Source: Actinomycetota bacterium
GTDB taxonomy: Bacteria; Actinomycetota; Geothermincolia; Geothermincolales; RBG-13-55-18
DNA: 64,000 nt
Assembly: GCA_013178005.1 (NCBI GenBank)
Contig: JABLXL010000045.1
Coordinates: forward strand, 4,438-68,437
Direction: 5' to 3'
How positions within the stretch are numbered: the stretch's first letter is position 1; each line of letters begins with the position of its first letter. A program made the translations under genes and the position numbers. The notes under the pieces are model-generated. The model searched no databases. It saw only the letters and a program-made list of their open reading frames with translations, and was not told where the DNA came from. Shown here piece after piece: positions 4,751-31,370 of the stretch.

Positions 4751-6628
4751 ATCGACATAGGTAGGCCCTCGCGGGCTGTCCCTGTCACACCACCGTGCGT
4801 ACGGGTCCGTACACGGCGGTTCGGCAAGGTTAAGCGGAGCAGCGGGCCTCCAAGGTGATGAGTCCGAGTTCGGAGAGAAGGCATTCGGGAAGGCGAAGCT
4901 TAACGCGGGGCTGCGGCTGATGCGCCAGGGGCCATGGACGCTGCCGGCGGTCTTGGCCGCAAGGCCCCTGCTGATATCCCTGGCCCTGAGTTCCGCGTAT
5001 CGTCTCTTGCCCCGCTTGAGCTGCTTCCAGATGAAGCACCGCAGTCTGCGCCTGATCCAGGAGTCGAGGTCGCGGAGGACCGACGGGGTCTGGCAGAAGC
5101 CGAAGTAGCCTATCCAGCCCCGCAGGTAGGTATTAAGGTCGGCCACCACCCGCTCCAGGGGTACCCCCCGGGTCCGGCGGGTGATCTCCTTTATCCGCCG
5201 GCGCAGGCGTTTGCGGGCCTTGGGCGATATGCTCCGCTTGGTCTTCTCCCTCCCGACGATGCGGAAGGAGAGAAAGTCCCGCTCGTGCGCCGGGGCCACC
5301 GCGCTCTTATCCCCGTTCACCCGGAGCTTGAGTCTCTTTGCGAGGAAGTGGGTGATTCCCTCCATGACTCTCCTGCCCGCCCGCTCCGATGCCACGTAGA
5401 TGTTGCAGTCATCGGCATAGCGGACGAAGGCGTGTCCCCTCCTCTCCAGCTCGCGGTCCAGGTCATCCAGGTAGATGTTGGAGAGCAGCGGGGAGAGGGG
5501 TCCTCCCTGCGGGGTGCCCATCTCGGGCGGGGATACGAGCCCTCCCTCCATCACCCCGGCCTTGAGGTAGGCCCGGATGAGTTTCAGGAGCACCTTGTCG
5601 TCTATCCTGCGGGCCACCCTGGCCATGAGCGCGTCGTGGCAGACGTTGTCGAAGAAGCGCTCGATGTCCAGGTCCACCACCCAGCTCTTCCCCTCTTCCA
5701 CATAGGACTGGGCCTTGGCTACAGCCTGGTGGGCCGAGCGGTGAGGCCGGAAGCCGTAGCTCCCCTCCGAGAGGTGGGGGTCGAATACGGGGGTTAGGAC
5801 TTGCAGGATGGCCTGCTGGATGAGGCGGTCGGCCACGGTGGGGATGCCTAGGTACCTATGGCCTCCGTCCGGCTTGGGTATGCCTACCCGCCTCACCGGC
5901 TGGGGCCGGTAGGTGCCTGTGAGCAGCTCCTCCCTTATCTCCTGCCAGCTCTGGCTGAGGAAGAGGGGCAGCTCGGCGGTGGTCATCCCATCCACCCCTG
6001 GGGCTCCCGCGTTCTCCATGACCTTCTTCAGTGCCTTCTTCATGTTCTCCGGGCTTACCACCACCTCCATGAGTCCCGTTGCCTTTGCCGGGCGTTCGGG
6101 GCTGCGCTCCGCCGCGGGCGGTTCGTTCCCTTCCAGCGAGGGGTTGCGGGCTTCACCCTCCCCCGTCTCGCCGAAGGCCAGTTGTCCCTGGTCTTTCCGC
6201 CGCTTGCCGTCCCGCGAGTCACGCATCCTACTTGCCACTCCTTGCCGTTCGGCCCTTCGGTGGACGAAAAGTCCTCCTACTATGGCCTCTGCTGACTCCT
6301 GCGCCGCGGTCAGGGTCCCTCACGGTTCCCTCAGTCCCCTTGGGGGGACACGGCGCAGGCCTCCCGGGGTAAGACCGGCCGCCTTCCCCGCACACCCGCC
6401 GGATTTACGCCCGTGGCCCTTGACGGATATGGACTTCGCGATCTCTTGCTCGCTCGTCCGGCCACGCTCGCCTCGTATCCGGTTCCTGTTCGTCGGGTCG
6501 CGGTTTTGCTCCTGCGCTTCCTTCAGACTCAACCTCGCGATTGAGCCCTTGCGCTTCGCTAGTCCTTCACCTCCGTCAGGTTGGACAGGGGACTTTCACC
6601 CCCGAGCTGCCGGCCATGCCCGGCACAC
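4751..6628 (-). mobile_element. Group II intron, class C (IIC)
   Basis: 5' end GTGTG at 6628; domain V GAACCGCCGTGTACGGACCCGTACGCACGGTGG from 4822 with CGC triad; domain VI ending ...TGTCGAT at 4751; internal RT ORF; inserted 8 nt after a terminator stem. Confidence 0.92.
4830..6226 (-). CDS. ltrA: Group II intron reverse transcriptase/maturase, no endonuclease domain; apparent 1-nt deletion near 4876
   Basis: [50 protein letters not shown]; the alternative frame ([13 protein letters not shown]) stops at 4830, just before domain V. Confidence 0.9.
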
Positions 6629-20985: not shown

Positions 20986-21969
20986 TCATCCCACGGCGGT
21001 GCCGGCGGTACGGGCGCCGGGAAGGTCCAGCTCCCATTTCCCGCAGCGCCCGCCCCAACGGGCAAGCACGTCGCCCTCCACCATGATCTTCACTATCTCG
21101 CAGTTGTTGGAGCACCCCTTGCAGTTGAAGCTGGAGGTACGGTAGTCGATCTCCGTGACCCTGAACCCCTTGAAGTTCGTGGTCGGGGGATTGAGGTCGC
21201 GGGCCAGGAGCGCGGCGCCGATGGCGCCCATGACTGCGAAATGCTCCGGCACCACCACCTCCATGCCCAAGGCCTCCTCGAAGGCCCGCTTCATCCCCAC
21301 GTTGGCCGCAACTCCGCCCTGGAAGACAACCGGCGCCTCCACGCTCTTGCCCTTGGCGAGGTTATTGAGGAAGTTCCGCACCAGGGCCTCGCAAAGCCCG
21401 AGGATGATGCTGTCCACCGGGTGGCCCACCTGCTGCTTATGGATCATGTCGGATTCCGCGAAAACCGAGCAGCGCCCCGCTATCTGCACCCCGGCCTGCG
21501 CCCGCAAGGCGTAGGTTCCGAACTCCTCGATGGGGATGTTGAGGCGCGCCGCCTGGTGGTCGAGAAAGGATCCGGTCCCCGCCGCGCACACCGTGTTCAT
21601 GGCGAAGTCCACCACGATGCCGTCCTGAAGGATGATGATCTTCGAGTCCTGCCCCCCGATCTCCAACACCGTGCGCACGTCCGGTACCACGTGCAGGGCG
21701 GCCACGGCATGGGCGGTGATCTCGTTCTTCACGATGTCCGCGCCCACGATCACCCCGCTCAGGTGTCGGGCGCTTCCCGTGGTGCCCGCGCCGAGCACCT
21801 CCACGCCGGCTGGAAGCTGGGCGCCCAGCTGCCGCAGGCCCTCCTGCACCGCGCTTATGGGTTGCCCCTTGGTGCGCAGGTAAACGGAGGCGGCGACCTC
21901 CCCGCTCTCCTCCAGCAGGACCAGGTTGGTGCTCACCGAGCCCACGTCAACACCGAGATATCCCCTCAA
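20986..21969 (-). CDS. Acyl-CoA dehydratase activase (BadF/BcrAD/HgdC ATPase)
   Basis: GVDVGSVST, TTGSAR, NEITAHA, EIGGQDSK, MNTVCAAGTGSFL, RCSVFAESD, FQGGVA; C-terminal CKGCSNNC...RCG. Confidence 0.92.
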   Translation of the reverse strand: MRGYLGVDVGSVSTNLVLLEESGEVAASVYLRTKGQPISAVQEGLRQLGAQLPAGVEVLGAGTTGSARHLSGVIVGADIVKNEITAHAVAALHVVPDVRTVLEIGGQDSKIIILQDGIVVDFAMNTVCAAGTGSFLDHQAARLNIPIEEFGTYALRAQAGVQIAGRCSVFAESDMIHKQQVGHPVDSIILGLCEALVRNFLNNLAKGKSVEAPVVFQGGVAANVGMKRAFEEALGMEVVVPEHFAVMGAIGAALLARDLNPPTTNFKGFRVTEIDYRTSSFNCKGCSNNCEIVKIMVEGDVLARWGGRCGKWELDLPGARTAGTAVG

Positions 21970-26874: not shown

Positions 26875-28302
26875 TCACACCCCCCGCGTTCTTCTGCGCG
26901 TCCATATCCCCTTGACGTACCCCCTGATGCCGCCGACAAGTACGGATATCGCGGCCTTCAGGAGGGGCTTCAGCGCCGACGGGTTGCGCCGGAGCGCCGC
27001 CGCCACCTGGTCCCCCGTGGCCTTGGCGGCCCGCTCCAACTCCTGCGCGTCGATGCCCGCGAGGAAAGCGCTCGTCCTGTCCGCGAGCGCCTCGGGATTC
27101 CCGCTCAACCACTGGTTGTAGGACTCGATCGCCCGATTGACCCCCCTAGCCGCCGCCTCGGGACCCGCCTCGAGCCCGAGGGCGGACAGGGTTTGCCGTG
27201 AAAGCCCGGCCACGAGGCCCGGGTTCTCCGCGACCATCCTGCGCCCCAGAGAGGCCAGCGAGGCGATCGCCCTGCCCAGCTCCCCGACCTCCAGCCCGTC
27301 GGACATGGATGTGGCCATCTTGCCCAAGGCCTCGCGCGAAAGAGAATTCGCTTTTTCCAGGAACGAGGACGCGAAGAGGAAGAATGAATTTGCCAGAGAG
27401 ACCGTGGCCTCGAACAGCCGCACCGCAAGCTCCTCGTTTTCAAGGACCCTGTTTGCCAGCGCGCTCGCAAGCGCCTCGGCCTCCTCGCCCACGGCCGCGA
27501 TGGCCTCCGCGAGCACTTGCCCGTCTATGGCTCCGATCAGGTCCGAACTGATCCGTTGCAGGGGCTCCCTGGAATAGAGGCTGCCGTCGCCCAGGATGAG
27601 GCTGCCGCGGTGCACGTTGACGATGAACGCGGAAGCCCCGTTGATGACCGCGGCGACGTCGTTCCAGTCGAGGTCTTGCAGGATCTTGAAAAGCGCATAG
27701 GTGACCGCCTCCGCTGGAAGGGCGAGGATGTCGAAAAGCGCCCTCAAGACCTTCAACGCGTCGTTGATGACGGGCGCCACCACGCTGAACATGTTGATCA
27801 AGGCCATGGGGCTGTCCCCCAGCAACTCCACCTCCCTGCGGGCGAGGTCCAGCCTCTCCCCCACCCTGTAGGTGACCGCTTTGCGCAGCTTGCCGAAGTC
27901 GATGGCCTGAACCGCCTCGGCGAACAGCCCTGACTGGAAGGAAGCGAAAAGCTCAGGGTTTTCCTCGTGCAGCCGGATCACCAGGCGCGAGAGCGCGTTG
28001 AGCGCCTCGCCGATCTCCTCTCCTTTAACTTGAGCGTAAGACCTGGCGACCAGTTCCGCCGCCTCCTGCGCGGGCATGCCCTCCATGGATTCCGCGAAGG
28101 CCTTCACGGCGTGCGCCGCCGCGCTCACCAGGCGCGGCAGGGACTCCACCAGCGCGGAGGTGAAATCCCCGTCATCTCGGAAAAGAGTGCCCGCGAGTTG
28201 CGCGGGGTCGCTTTCCCGCAACCCTTCCAGCAGGCGAACAGCCGCCTCCCTCATCTCCTCCGCTTTCGGGGGTACGCCCCCTTCTCTCACCGCCATCCTC
28301 AT
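26875..28302 (-). CDS. Hypothetical all-alpha repeat protein (in-frame alternative starts at 28419 and 28536 due to triplication)
   Basis: GAGGTG RBS; amphipathic helical repeats; basic C-terminal tail; stop 4 nt before the dehydratase start. Confidence 0.75.
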   Translation of the reverse strand: MRMAVREGGVPPKAEEMREAAVRLLEGLRESDPAQLAGTLFRDDGDFTSALVESLPRLVSAAAHAVKAFAESMEGMPAQEAAELVARSYAQVKGEEIGEALNALSRLVIRLHEENPELFASFQSGLFAEAVQAIDFGKLRKAVTYRVGERLDLARREVELLGDSPMALINMFSVVAPVINDALKVLRALFDILALPAEAVTYALFKILQDLDWNDVAAVINGASAFIVNVHRGSLILGDGSLYSREPLQRISSDLIGAIDGQVLAEAIAAVGEEAEALASALANRVLENEELAVRLFEATVSLANSFFLFASSFLEKANSLSREALGKMATSMSDGLEVGELGRAIASLASLGRRMVAENPGLVAGLSRQTLSALGLEAGPEAAARGVNRAIESYNQWLSGNPEALADRTSAFLAGIDAQELERAAKATGDQVAAALRRNPSALKPLLKAAISVLVGGIRGYVKGIWTRRRTRGV

Positions 28303-28584
28303 CACCTCACCGTGGAAAGACCGCCCGGCGGCGCCAGCGTACCCTCGCCGGGCGAACACCGCCTCCCTCATCTCCTCCGCTTTCGGGGGTACGCCCCCTT
28401 CTCTCACCGCCATCCTCATCACCTCACCGTGGAAAGACCGCCCGGCGGCGCCAGCGTACCTCGCCGGGCGAACAGCCGCCTCCCTCATCTCCTCCGCTTT
28501 CGGGGGTACGCCCCCTTCTCTCACCGCCATCCTCATCACCTCACCGTGGAAAGACCGCCCGGCGGCGCCAGCGTACCCTCGCCG
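28233..28584 (-). repeat. Tandem triplication of a 118-bp segment with effective period 117 bp
   Basis: CGCTTTCGGG occurs at 28261, 28378 and 28495; each junction lacks one base at a different position. Confidence 0.95.
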
Positions 28585-29096
28585 GCCCCACTCTCCCGGT
28601 CTCCCCAGAGCCCGCATCCCCCTATCCCGATATCCCGACAGCGGGCTCAGCTGTTTTCGCTCCGGAGCCTGTTTCCCACGGCCTGCATCATTTCGCCGCC
28701 GTCGACAAGCGGCGTTCTCCGGGTAAACGGATCGCGGAGTAGTGCGGATGTACGACGATGCGGTATCGAGACCGTATTACGATTCCCAGTTGCGTGTTCC
28801 GCCGATGATCCCGGCGCCGCCTCGCGGCGCTAACGATCGGCTCCCTCTTTTCGACTTCATCGAGGCGGCAAGCGCAAGATCACCGCCGCCCGTGATCCCT
28901 TGCCGCCGCCATCCACTCGCCTGCCCGTATCTTCAAACCCCCTCGGGGGCGCGTGGTCGAGATGCCTGTGCCGGCGACTTCCCCCTGCCCCGCGAGGAGA
29001 AGCACGGGGTCGATATCAAGCCATGACAACCCGCCGCCTCTTTACACCAGCCGTGGGCGAGCCGCGCCCACAGCCGCCTTTCGTACGCCGCTTTCC

Positions 29097-29516
29097 TCAC
29101 CCCTCGACCTTTTTCCAGGGAATGGCGCGCGCCAGCAACGCGATGTAGAGCATGAAAAACCAGAGGATGAAATGCACTCCCCACGACGAGGGCTCCTTGC
29201 GGCGCAGCCTGTTGGCGATGAGCAGGCAGGTCATGGTCTTGTACATGATCTGGGTGTAGAGGACGGGAAGGTATCTCTCGAAATTGCCCTCATCGCGAAG
29301 GGCCGCCGCCGAAAGCGCGCCCACGGAGGTTACGATGGAGCCGTAGATGCCCATCATCACCGGGTCGTCGTAAGGCCATTTGAGGAGCTTGCGGGCGAAG
29401 CCCGGCGCCAGCGCCATGGGGGGGCCGGCGCTGAAGCACATCACGACGTTATAGCCGTACATGAACTTCTGCAGGCGCTTCTTTTTCTCCAGGTAGGTTT
29501 CTTCCGCTGCCATCAT
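29097..29516 (-). CDS. Hypothetical membrane protein (about 4 TM)
   Basis: Several hydrophobic helices; WPYDDPVMMGIYGS; located within the operon. Confidence 0.7.
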   Translation of the reverse strand: MMAAEETYLEKKKRLQKFMYGYNVVMCFSAGPPMALAPGFARKLLKWPYDDPVMMGIYGSIVTSVGALSAAALRDEGNFERYLPVLYTQIMYKTMTCLLIANRLRRKEPSSWGVHFILWFFMLYIALLARAIPWKKVEG

Positions 29517-29580
29517 CCATCTCCCTTCCCAGGCACCCCTTGCGATGAGCTGCGGCGCGACGCCTCGGTGGGGTCGTCGC

Positions 29581-30258
29581 TCACCCACGCGCTCTCTTCA
29601 CGGCGGCACGCAGGACGATGAGGGCGGCGACCGCGCCTGCCAGCGGGAGGAGCTTGCGGCCCCCGCCGCGGCGCTTCTCTCCGCCGCCCGCCCTGGCCGC
29701 GGCGGCCGCGATCGAGCCCAGGCGCCTCAGCGACCGCGCCAGCGCCTCCCTATCCAGTTCTTTCCATATAGCGGCAAGGCTCTTCCCCATCTCCTCGCGC
29801 CTGGCATCGAGTTCGGCGGTCACCTCGTCCAGGCGACCGATGGCCGCGTTCGCCGCCTTCACCGCCGCCGACCGCACATCCTCGGGGGCGGCCTCGTCGC
29901 CGAAGAGCAGGCGCCGGGCGAGCTGCCCGAACACCTCCGGAAGTTGCCTCAGCCTCTCTTCGTCGATGCCCCCTCCCACCTGTCCCAGGATGTCCTTAAG
30001 GAGAGGCTCCGGCAGGCCGTTAAGCTGCCTGCCCAATTCAAGCAAAAGCTCCAGGAGCCAGTTCACAGCGTCGGGAAGGGCGCCGAATATGCTCATGGAG
30101 ATGCCGGGGTCCCCCCACAGCAGCGTCTTGACCAGCCCCGGGGCGGTATCGGCCTTTATGTCCTTCATCTGCAGGAGGATAATCTCCTTGAGGGCGGGGG
30201 TGGCGATTATCTCGCGGAGCACGCGCTCCCCCAGGCCCATGGGTGTTTGTTCCCGCAT
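29581..30258 (-). CDS. Hypothetical helical protein with C-terminal hydrophobic anchor; paralog of 30275-30973
   Basis: GGAGGTG RBS; VLREIIATP..KE, LLWGDPG, LPEPLLKD, GID; ends LLPLAGAVAALIVLRAAVKRARG. Confidence 0.75.
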   Translation of the reverse strand: MREQTPMGLGERVLREIIATPALKEIILLQMKDIKADTAPGLVKTLLWGDPGISMSIFGALPDAVNWLLELLLELGRQLNGLPEPLLKDILGQVGGGIDEERLRQLPEVFGQLARRLLFGDEAAPEDVRSAAVKAANAAIGRLDEVTAELDARREEMGKSLAAIWKELDREALARSLRRLGSIAAAAARAGGGEKRRGGGRKLLPLAGAVAALIVLRAAVKRARG

Positions 30259-30274
30259 CCGGTTCACCTCCCCG

Positions 30275-30973
30275 TTATCCCTCATCGCGGGCCGGCTTTT
30301 TCGTCCCGGCCGACGTCCTCTGGGCTCCCGATGTCCCCATAACCGGCTCGAGGATGGGCTTGAGCACATGCTCCACGAAGGCGGGATTCTCCCTCACCGC
30401 CCTTGTCGCCGCCTGGACGAAGCCGTGGACGGCCGATTCCGGATCCTGGGCGCGCTCCGCGGCCCCCGCCATCCACGCCCCCAGGCGCTCATCGAGTCTC
30501 GCGCCGGAGGCCGCGTCGGAGTATGCCCGGCTGAAATCCTCCGCCATGGCCGACAGCCCGCGCCTGAGAACGCTCTCTTTGTTCGATATTCCCAGGGAAA
30601 GGACCATGGAAACCAGCCCGCCGGCGGCCTCTCCCGCCGCCGCACCGTCGATTCCCGCCACCACCTGGTTGAGGAAATCCTGCAGCAGGGGAGGGGGCAT
30701 GGTGTTCATCTGGTTGGCCACCTCCGCCAGGGCTTCGCTGATCACGTTGATGAGGGAGGGGAGGCTGCCCATGAGGGAGAGCAGGAGGCCGGGGTCCTGC
30801 CAGAAAAGGGTGCGCACCAGCCTCCTGGCCGAGGGTGGATCGATGGAATTGAGCAGTATGACCAGGGTCTCCTTGAACTTGGGGGTGCGGATCAGCTCGC
30901 GCAGGATGCGATCCGCGGCGTCAATCAACCCCCTGGTATCCACGACGGCAGCGGCTTCGGTATCGTCTTTCAT
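30275..30973 (-). CDS. Hypothetical helical protein; paralog of 29581-30258
   Basis: GAGGTG RBS; ILRELIRTPKFKE, LFWQDPG, MPPPLLQD, GID. Confidence 0.75.
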   Translation of the reverse strand: MKDDTEAAAVVDTRGLIDAADRILRELIRTPKFKETLVILLNSIDPPSARRLVRTLFWQDPGLLLSLMGSLPSLINVISEALAEVANQMNTMPPPLLQDFLNQVVAGIDGAAAGEAAGGLVSMVLSLGISNKESVLRRGLSAMAEDFSRAYSDAASGARLDERLGAWMAGAAERAQDPESAVHGFVQAATRAVRENPAFVEHVLKPILEPVMGTSGAQRTSAGTKKPARDEG

Positions 30974-31370
30974 TTTTCTCACCTCACAGCTTCTCGCGTT
31001 GGCGGAAGCGGTTTGCCGCCTCCGCGTACCCTGGCTACCCCATGCCCACCGTGTGCGCCCGTACTCGTGGGCCACCCCTTATATCGACGCTCCCTCTGCC
31101 TCGCCAGGCCGGCCGGCGAAGGACACCCCCTGCGGACGACGCAGCCAAAGAGCTGAAATAACCAGGCCGCGTTTTCGGTGGCGCCTGATTCCCGGTCGGG
31201 ACGCCTCCCATTCCCGCGGGAAAGGAGGCGGCTCCTCGGGGCGCCTCGCCCCGTCCATCCGTTCCGCCCGCCATCTACGGCCGTCTCCTCCGAAACTCTC
31301 GAAGCCGACGGATCACAACCCCTACCGGCGCCCCCTTTCCCCGAGCTTTAGCCCTCGGGTCCTCCGTCCG

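Follow-up and report, generated by a model that had tools for sequence, protein, structure and literature searches.

Operons that join radical HGD-D- or benzoyl-CoA reductase (BCR)-type enzymes to acyl-CoA dehydrogenases (ACADs) hold a central place in the anaerobic metabolism of amino acids and aromatic compounds. Examples are the clostridial reductive 2-hydroxyacyl-CoA operons, such as hadI-hadBC-acdB-etfBA, and the combination of lactoyl-CoA dehydratase with acryloyl-CoA reductase. To our knowledge, the characterized operons of the HGD-D/BCR plus ACAD type encode catalytic subunits, the activase and electron transfer flavoprotein (ETF) only. Here, we analyzed a 64,000-nucleotide (nt) stretch of DNA from an Actinomycetota bacterium (the window; assembly GCA_013178005.1, contig JABLXL010000045.1, positions 4,438 to 68,437), in which three unassigned proteins, designated A, B and D, are encoded between an ACAD pair and an HGD-D pair, together with a small membrane protein, C. 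A, B and D constitute one previously unnamed family of all-alpha proteins built of a repeated module, and we consider this family new and the operon type that it marks a new version of a known one.

As in the clostridial 2-hydroxyacyl-CoA operons, an HGD-D pair, a BcrAD/HgdC-type activase and an ACAD are found in one operon. Unlike there, the ACAD of the window is a conserved pair, no etf genes occur within the cluster, the beta subunit is nearest to BzdN and not to HadC, and one to four helical-repeat genes (plus the membrane protein in Actinomycetota) are placed between the two enzymes. The locus also resembles class I BCR, BzdNOPQ (PDB 8s02), in that the 374-amino-acid (aa) HGD-D subunit matches BzdN and in that four loci from other phyla (L011-L014) encode two BcrAD ATPases, comparable to BzdPQ. 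BzdNOPQ differs in having four subunits, with neither an ACAD partner nor a helical accessory subunit (PMC11971306). The four genes of interest, in window coordinates, are:

30275..30973, minus strand: protein A, 232 aa, with one full module and a helical C-terminal half; open reading frame with a GAGGTGAG Shine-Dalgarno sequence at its start
29581..30258, minus strand: protein B, 225 aa, with one full module, a degenerate second copy and a hydrophobic C-terminal tail anchor
29097..29516, minus strand: protein C, 139 aa, a small hydrophobic membrane protein without the module
26875..28302, minus strand: protein D, 475 aa, with three module copies, a partial fourth and a basic C-terminal tail

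We built family alignments from 91 (A), 91 (B) and 50 (D) relatives and compared them profile against profile using hhalign. A and B are paralogues with 44% identity across 90 aa (BLASTP E 1e-22 with compositional adjustment), and A matches the N-terminus of D with a BLASTP E of 3e-6. At the profile level, the A and B families align at 3.9e-27 over 95 columns, A aligns with D 12-117 at 2.9e-10, and A 59-209 aligns with D 288-453 at 3.1e-7; the comparison of A with D 163-258 yielded only 0.005. B matched either half of D at ~1e-6. With the D alignment cut in thirds, the first and last thirds (D1-D3) matched each other at 1.2e-8, D1-D2 at 1.5e-5 and D2-D3 at 1.3e-4. The preliminary description of this DNA had proposed, from manual alignment, that the three proteins share one helical repeat in a single register. 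Profile alignment confirms both points: the similarity is significant, and every alignment falls in the register LPxL-helix, (M/L)P, helix, (G)(I/L)D/E, helix.

Using MAFFT, 57 segments of A, B, D1 and D3 could be joined in one 118-column alignment, which contains a single nearly invariant Pro, located at the '(M/L)P' turn. A, B and D1-D3 all show the features by which we define the module family, namely the LP-helix, the nearly invariant Pro turn and the (G)(I/L)D/E helix in one register. The unit length proposed earlier, ~55 aa, applies to the three-helix core (~55-60 aa), which lies within a longer conserved N-terminal module of ~95-115 aa. In the AlphaFold2 (AF2) model of A, the core corresponds to helices 71-89, 94-107 and 110-126, and the LPSLINVIS...AGID core of A spans aa 70-109. 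The module copies are as follows:

30569..30922, minus strand: module copy in A (aa 18-135), from hhalign against B and D1 and from the joint alignment
29884..30237, minus strand: module copy in B (aa 8-125), from BLASTP and hhalign against A
27946..28269, minus strand: D copy 1 (aa 12-119; LPRLVSAAAHAVKAFAESMEGMPAQEAAELVARSYAQVK), from hhalign against A and D3
27568..27816, minus strand: D copy 2 (aa 163-245; VAPVIND...LPAE...LD), followed by the invariant HRGSLILGDGSLY loop, from hhalign against D1 and D3
27196..27441, minus strand: D copy 3 (aa 288-369; TVSLANS...SLSREA...GLE), from hhalign against A and D1
26938..27096, minus strand: partial D copy 4 (aa 403-455; NPEALADRTSAFLAGIDAQELERAA...RRNPSAL), from comparison with D 323-375 (E 2.3e-5)

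Judged by these alignments, the three module copies in D are real, with the middle copy the least strongly supported. Copies 2 and 3 are the two further repeats that had been picked out by eye in 26875-28302, and hhalign recovers both. For the middle D copy and for the extra copies in B and D, support is limited to E-values of ~1e-4 to 1e-5; the degenerate copy in the C-terminal half of B, for instance, was detected by matching B 132-191 to D 175-234 (E 1e-4). A second internal copy in the C-terminal half of A is unsupported on its own (E 0.0028-0.058).

A search of the 118-column module profile against 1.84 billion representative proteins returned 564 clusters at E<=1e-3, 403 at <=1e-10 and 49 at <=1e-30, and domain E-values in relatives reached 1e-46 in local hmmsearch runs. 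Among the best 160 matches, the median protein length was 232 aa for one module, 360 aa for two, 496 aa for three and 574 aa for four. Copy number thus tracks protein length, the signature of a true modular repeat. The source labels comprise Actinomycetota, Candidatus (Ca.) Solincola, Anaerolineae, Bacillota/Firmicutes and Ca. Lernaella stagnicola, and the family carriers come from subsurface, hot-spring and sediment samples. Wherever family members bear a name it is 'hypothetical protein', as is the case for all 92 relatives of A.

Database comparisons agree with the earlier view of an unrecognised family. When A, B, C and D were scanned against Pfam and NCBIfam, the best E was 0.0016, far under the cut-off, and none of 92 diverse relatives matched Pfam at E<=1e-3. 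PDB sequence and profile searches with D, the module and the A profile returned noise only (PTS enzyme I at 0.005 over 46 aa; a Ca-binding protein at 0.004). With Foldseek against PDB, A had no match at E<=10 and D a single noise match, all-helical folds being weak ground for this method; A had no meaningful match in BFVD, and TM-scores were <=0.17 across the Foldseek searches of A and D. We therefore claim that the family has no detectable relative, rather than a new fold, as Foldseek is insensitive for all-helical folds.

Three specific assignments found no support. A Bcl-2/BID-like bundle was considered, BID being the best PDB profile match of D, but the E-value (0.09-0.26) is not significant and Foldseek gave no such match. 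For HEAT, ARM or TPR repeats there was no Pfam match, and PDB profile matches to HEAT proteins were noise (E 0.28-0.78), although a distant relative of this kind could have escaped Foldseek. A, B and D are likewise not homologues of BzdN/O/P/Q or HadB/C/I, as they have no HGD-D or BcrAD match and only their neighbors do. In the literature on BCR plus ACAD gene clusters, BzdNOPQ and Solincola ACADs, we found neither the operon nor the family described.

We next consider predicted structure and composition. The AF2 model of A comprises 11 helices of 9-27 aa (pLDDT 86, pTM 0.62), and that of D is all-alpha with 21 helices (pLDDT 76, pTM 0.52); the helices are short (9-29 aa) and parted by conserved Pro/Gly turns. 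The core helices are amphipathic, as had been supposed, with hydrophobic moments of 0.37-0.57 that are reached by at most 1-5% of shuffles, although amphipathicity is a generic feature of packed helices and helical bundles. In composition, the sequences favor Ala, Leu and Glu. Cys is absent from A, B and D (the families average 0.07-0.5%) and His almost absent. Most invariant residues lie at helix caps and turns and are Pro, Gly, Asn, Asp or Glu. The exception is two conserved, non-helical loops of D in the 27568-27900 region of the window, DFGKLRK (aa 135-141) and HRGSLILGDGSLY (aa 231-243), which lie outside the repeat consensus and are the leading candidates for an interface or a functional site.

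The preliminary description had also noted hydrophobic or basic tails on two of the proteins, and both tails recur across the respective families:

29599..29655, minus strand: hydrophobic tail of B (aa 202-220, KLLPLAGAVAALIVLRAAV), followed by KRARG; Kyte-Doolittle 19-mer 1.92
26878..26970, minus strand: basic amphipathic C-terminal tail of D (…LKAAISVLVGGIRGYVKGIWTRRRTRGV)

In the B family (n=91), 78% of members have a hydrophobic segment within the last 45 aa and 91% have basic end residues. The last 25 aa of the D family carry a net charge of at least +4 in 50/50 members (median +7), and the same holds for 77% of long relatives. Protein C has a strong transmembrane (TM) segment at aa 114-132 and is 59-72% identical to the proteins at the same position in L001 and L003.

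Taken as a working resemblance only, the architecture is like that of alpha-solenoid scaffolds (HEAT/ARM), with tandem helix-turn-helix(-helix) units, variable copy number and non-catalytic composition; unlike in HEAT/ARM, the unit is longer (55-115 aa), and there is no sequence or Foldseek match. A second analogy, for A and B, is provided by VLCAD and ACAD9, which have a C-terminal helical membrane-binding domain, fused to the enzyme in VLCAD. Here too, an extra all-helical part is associated with an ACAD and could place it at the membrane, but the helical parts are separate proteins and no sequence relationship was detected.

To define the operon context, we compared 12 distinct loci besides the window, among them loci of metagenome-assembled genomes with Actinomycetota or Ca. 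Lernaella labels. In 12/12 loci and in the window, an ACAD pair, one member complete and one degenerate, lies immediately ahead of the module genes, so that the proposed embedding in an acyl-CoA operon stands. Wherever the contig extends along the operon, as it does at all loci but L009, the module genes directly precede two HGD-D genes, which are followed by one or two genes for BcrAD ATPases. In Actinomycetota, the gene order of the block is A-B-C-D. In other phyla, the module genes encode either a 205-254-aa and a 572-601-aa protein, or an AB fusion and a D-like protein; in L013 and L014, overlaps join the genes for the small protein, the large protein and HGD-D.

The AB fusions (360-386 aa, from other lineages) are best matched by the A model in their N-terminal half, match best or longest with the B model in their C-terminal half, and carry a B-like basic/hydrophobic tail. 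The order within the fusion is that of the separate genes, which by the Rosetta-stone argument suggests that A and B act together. Two loci indicate where the block divides. In L012, a TetR gene parts ACAD-ACAD-AB from D-HGD-HGD-ATPases. In L009, the ACAD pair is followed by an AB fusion and then by an unrelated gene on the opposite strand, neither D nor HGD-D being adjacent. These split points suggest that A/B travel with the ACADs and D with the reductase-like enzyme.

On the basis of gene order, gene fusion and composition, we favor the reading of these proteins as a scaffold for the enzymes, which the preliminary description had raised as one of two options. Specifically, we put the probability at roughly 0.45 that A, B and D serve as helical subunits without a catalytic role, which bridge the ACAD and HGD-D enzymes and, in Actinomycetota, anchor both at the membrane. 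We infer physical association, bridging, substrate channeling and membrane tethering; the non-catalytic character is argued from the lack of Cys in A, B and D and from the location of invariant residues mostly at helix ends. The machine would combine a two-gene ACAD with an ATP-dependent BzdNO/2-hydroxyacyl-CoA-dehydratase-type iron-sulfur enzyme for anaerobic acyl-CoA conversion. A and B would pair mutually and stay with the ACAD pair, D would stay with the HGD-D pair, and the homologous modules of A/B and D would pack together and join both enzymes. A reactive enoyl- or dienoyl-CoA intermediate could then be passed directly from one enzyme to the other, and the basic or hydrophobic C-terminal tails, together with C in Actinomycetota, would hold the assembly at the membrane. 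In this concrete hypothesis, A/B belong to the ACAD side and D to the reductase side, and the two are joined by homotypic bridging.

Several observations weigh against this proposal. Hydrophobic tail anchors are rare outside Actinomycetota (8-16%), and no C homologue was found in the operon versions outside Actinomycetota at the loci examined. Instead of membranes, the targets of the basic tails could be nucleotides, CoA or acidic patches on proteins, and DFGKLRK and HRGSLILGDGSLY could form a ligand-binding site instead of an interface. A search of sequencing runs gave DNA metagenomes only, with no expression or proteomic records. Finally, the solved BzdNO and HAD (2-hydroxyisocaproyl-CoA dehydratase) structures are without such helical subunits, and class I BCR is described as the four-subunit enzyme BzdNOPQ (PMC11971306), which leaves the need for a scaffold unexplained.

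In a more far-reaching form, the module proteins would be the structural core of a so far undescribed supercomplex that directly couples an ATP-driven BzdNO-type low-potential reductase/dehydratase to a heteromeric ACAD, replaces ETF-based partners, channels enoyl- or dienoyl-CoA and is membrane-tethered in Actinomycetota. We regard this form as less likely than not. If true, such a supercomplex would be a new organizing principle for anaerobic acyl-CoA and aromatic metabolism, common to several deep-subsurface phyla. Several hundred sequence clusters with no name, Pfam model or structural relative accompany such enzymes, and the family definition provides a search model for the whole operon type.

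An alternative explanation is that A, B and D are hydrophobic-ligand- or lipid-binding proteins that deliver or solubilize the acyl-CoA substrate, or coat a lipid inclusion or membrane. The significantly amphipathic core helices, the basic or hydrophobic tails and the presence of membrane protein C in the same block are consistent with this, and two-gene ACAD pairs are known for bulky steroid-CoA substrates. The amphipathic, Ala/Leu/Glu-rich helices also recall phasins and exchangeable apolipoproteins, the likeness drawn in the preliminary description. However, apolipoproteins and phasins form long continuous amphipathic helices, whereas the helices here are short, have conserved Pro/Gly turns and are confidently packed by AF2 into a compact fold, unlike lipid-free apolipoproteins. 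Amphipathicity, moreover, is expected of any helical bundle, and the window proteins had no Pfam match to Phasin, Phasin_2, Apolipoprotein or Perilipin at E<=0.1. The operon is also enzymatic rather than one for storage lipids; no lipid-specific enzyme occurs in any operon examined, and the neighbors are an ACAD pair and a BzdN/HAD-type radical enzyme. Neither the phasin/apolipoprotein likeness nor the earlier label of a 'lipid' operon is supported. Overall, we consider lipid binding improbable.

To a similarly small degree, we allow that the module proteins might be assembly or maturation factors, which would chaperone the ACAD heteromer or the Fe-S loading of the BzdN-like subunit and remain outside the mature complex. 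BzdN carries an [8Fe-9S] cluster (PMC11971306), and the operons of other phyla hold a CooC/ParA-type ATPase and a CdhC-like protein with the look of metallocluster maturation. On the other hand, A, B and D offer no Cys or His ligands, 700-930 aa of module protein per operon is much for a chaperone, and the overlapping genes suggest stoichiometric production.

Considerably less probable is a membrane electron-transfer module that would replace ETF and link ACAD or reductase electrons to the quinone pool. The lack of etf genes in the cluster, the tail anchor of B, the integral membrane protein C and a nearby ferredoxin-domain protein would fit such a module, but A, B and D lack Cys and any cofactor motif and are nearly devoid of His, and C and the TM anchors are missing from the versions in other phyla. 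Chance or compositional similarity among Ala/Leu-rich helical proteins, to which the Ala/Leu/Glu-rich sequences and the weak match of the middle D copy to A (E 0.005) might point, is refuted by the compositionally adjusted BLASTP value (1e-22), profile E-values to 1e-27, the constant register, the 403 clusters at E<=1e-10 and the rise of copy number with length.

The remaining genes of the minus-strand cluster, which spans ~36.5 kb to 21 kb of the window (G+C ~65%), are:

36524-35826, minus strand: TetR gene
35635-34547, minus strand: 362-aa Cys-rich protein without a family match, between the TetR and ACAD genes
33927-32653, minus strand: complete ACAD, 424 aa, assigned by Pfam
32603-31371, minus strand: second ACAD, 410 aa, assigned by Pfam without a middle-domain match
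26871-25747, minus strand: HGD-D protein, 374 aa, BzdN-like
25750-24305, minus strand: HGD-D protein, 481 aa
24235-23339, minus strand: ferredoxin-domain protein, 298 aa
Between the ferredoxin-domain gene and the activase gene: GNAT gene
20986..21969, minus strand: BcrAD/HgdC-type activase ATPase (Pfam BcrAD_BadFG 2e-46)

The complete ACAD is an ordinary short/medium-chain-like enzyme, and the two-gene ACAD is probably heteromeric. The order of the pair is swapped between loci, with the complete gene first in the window, L005 and L006 and the degenerate gene first in L001 and the other-phylum loci. The 374-aa and 481-aa subunits match Pfam HGD-D at 7.7e-82 and 1.2e-44, respectively. For the 374-aa subunit, the best PDB match is BzdN (8s02_B, 6e-48), followed by the HAD beta subunit (1e-34).

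Between the stop codon of D and the first HGD-D gene lie 3 nt, and the second HGD-D gene shares 4 nt with the first. We chose the D start at 28302 because the D orthologues measure 473-475 aa. At this end of the gene, a 117-bp unit is present in three tandem in-frame copies (98% identity; window 28233-28585), which repeat the Shine-Dalgarno site and the start codon of D along with its first codons; the orthologues are single-copy. Short-read contigs in two independent metagenomes break at the triplication, and the depth of the 119-bp repeat contig is ~3x that of its flanks (73 vs 21 and 35 vs 13), which speaks for a true triplication and against an assembly error.

Two long G+C-rich spacers interrupt the operon at 30974-31370 (397 nt) and 28586-29096 (~510 nt), where the equivalents in L001 measure 10-13 nt. 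Neither has an Rfam match or is repeated elsewhere in the window, and one 48-nt stretch is 83% similar to L005. The first 230 residues of the 362-aa protein are flanked at either end by nearby CxxC pairs; the protein has no Pfam or NCBIfam match and is absent at the corresponding position in L001 and L003. The 298-aa protein consists of a ~200-aa N-terminal region without assignment and a C-terminal 2x[4Fe-4S] domain; its homologues adjoin the cluster in L001, L003, L005 and L006, and it may be a candidate electron donor of the system.

The other-phylum operons continue past the BcrAD ATPases with a ~240-aa protein (132 aa in L011), which has a CdhC Pfam match in 2/4 loci (L011-L014), and then a CooC/ParA/ArsA-type ATPase. 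The two may form a metallocluster maturation pair for the BzdN-like subunit. The CdhC-like plus CooC-type stretches are located at:

L011, 10667-11832
L012, 12551-14288
L013, 14835-16296
L014, 15308-16758

Elsewhere in the window, Rfam identifies group II intron domains D1-D4 (141 and 51 bits) at 6252-6544 on the minus strand.

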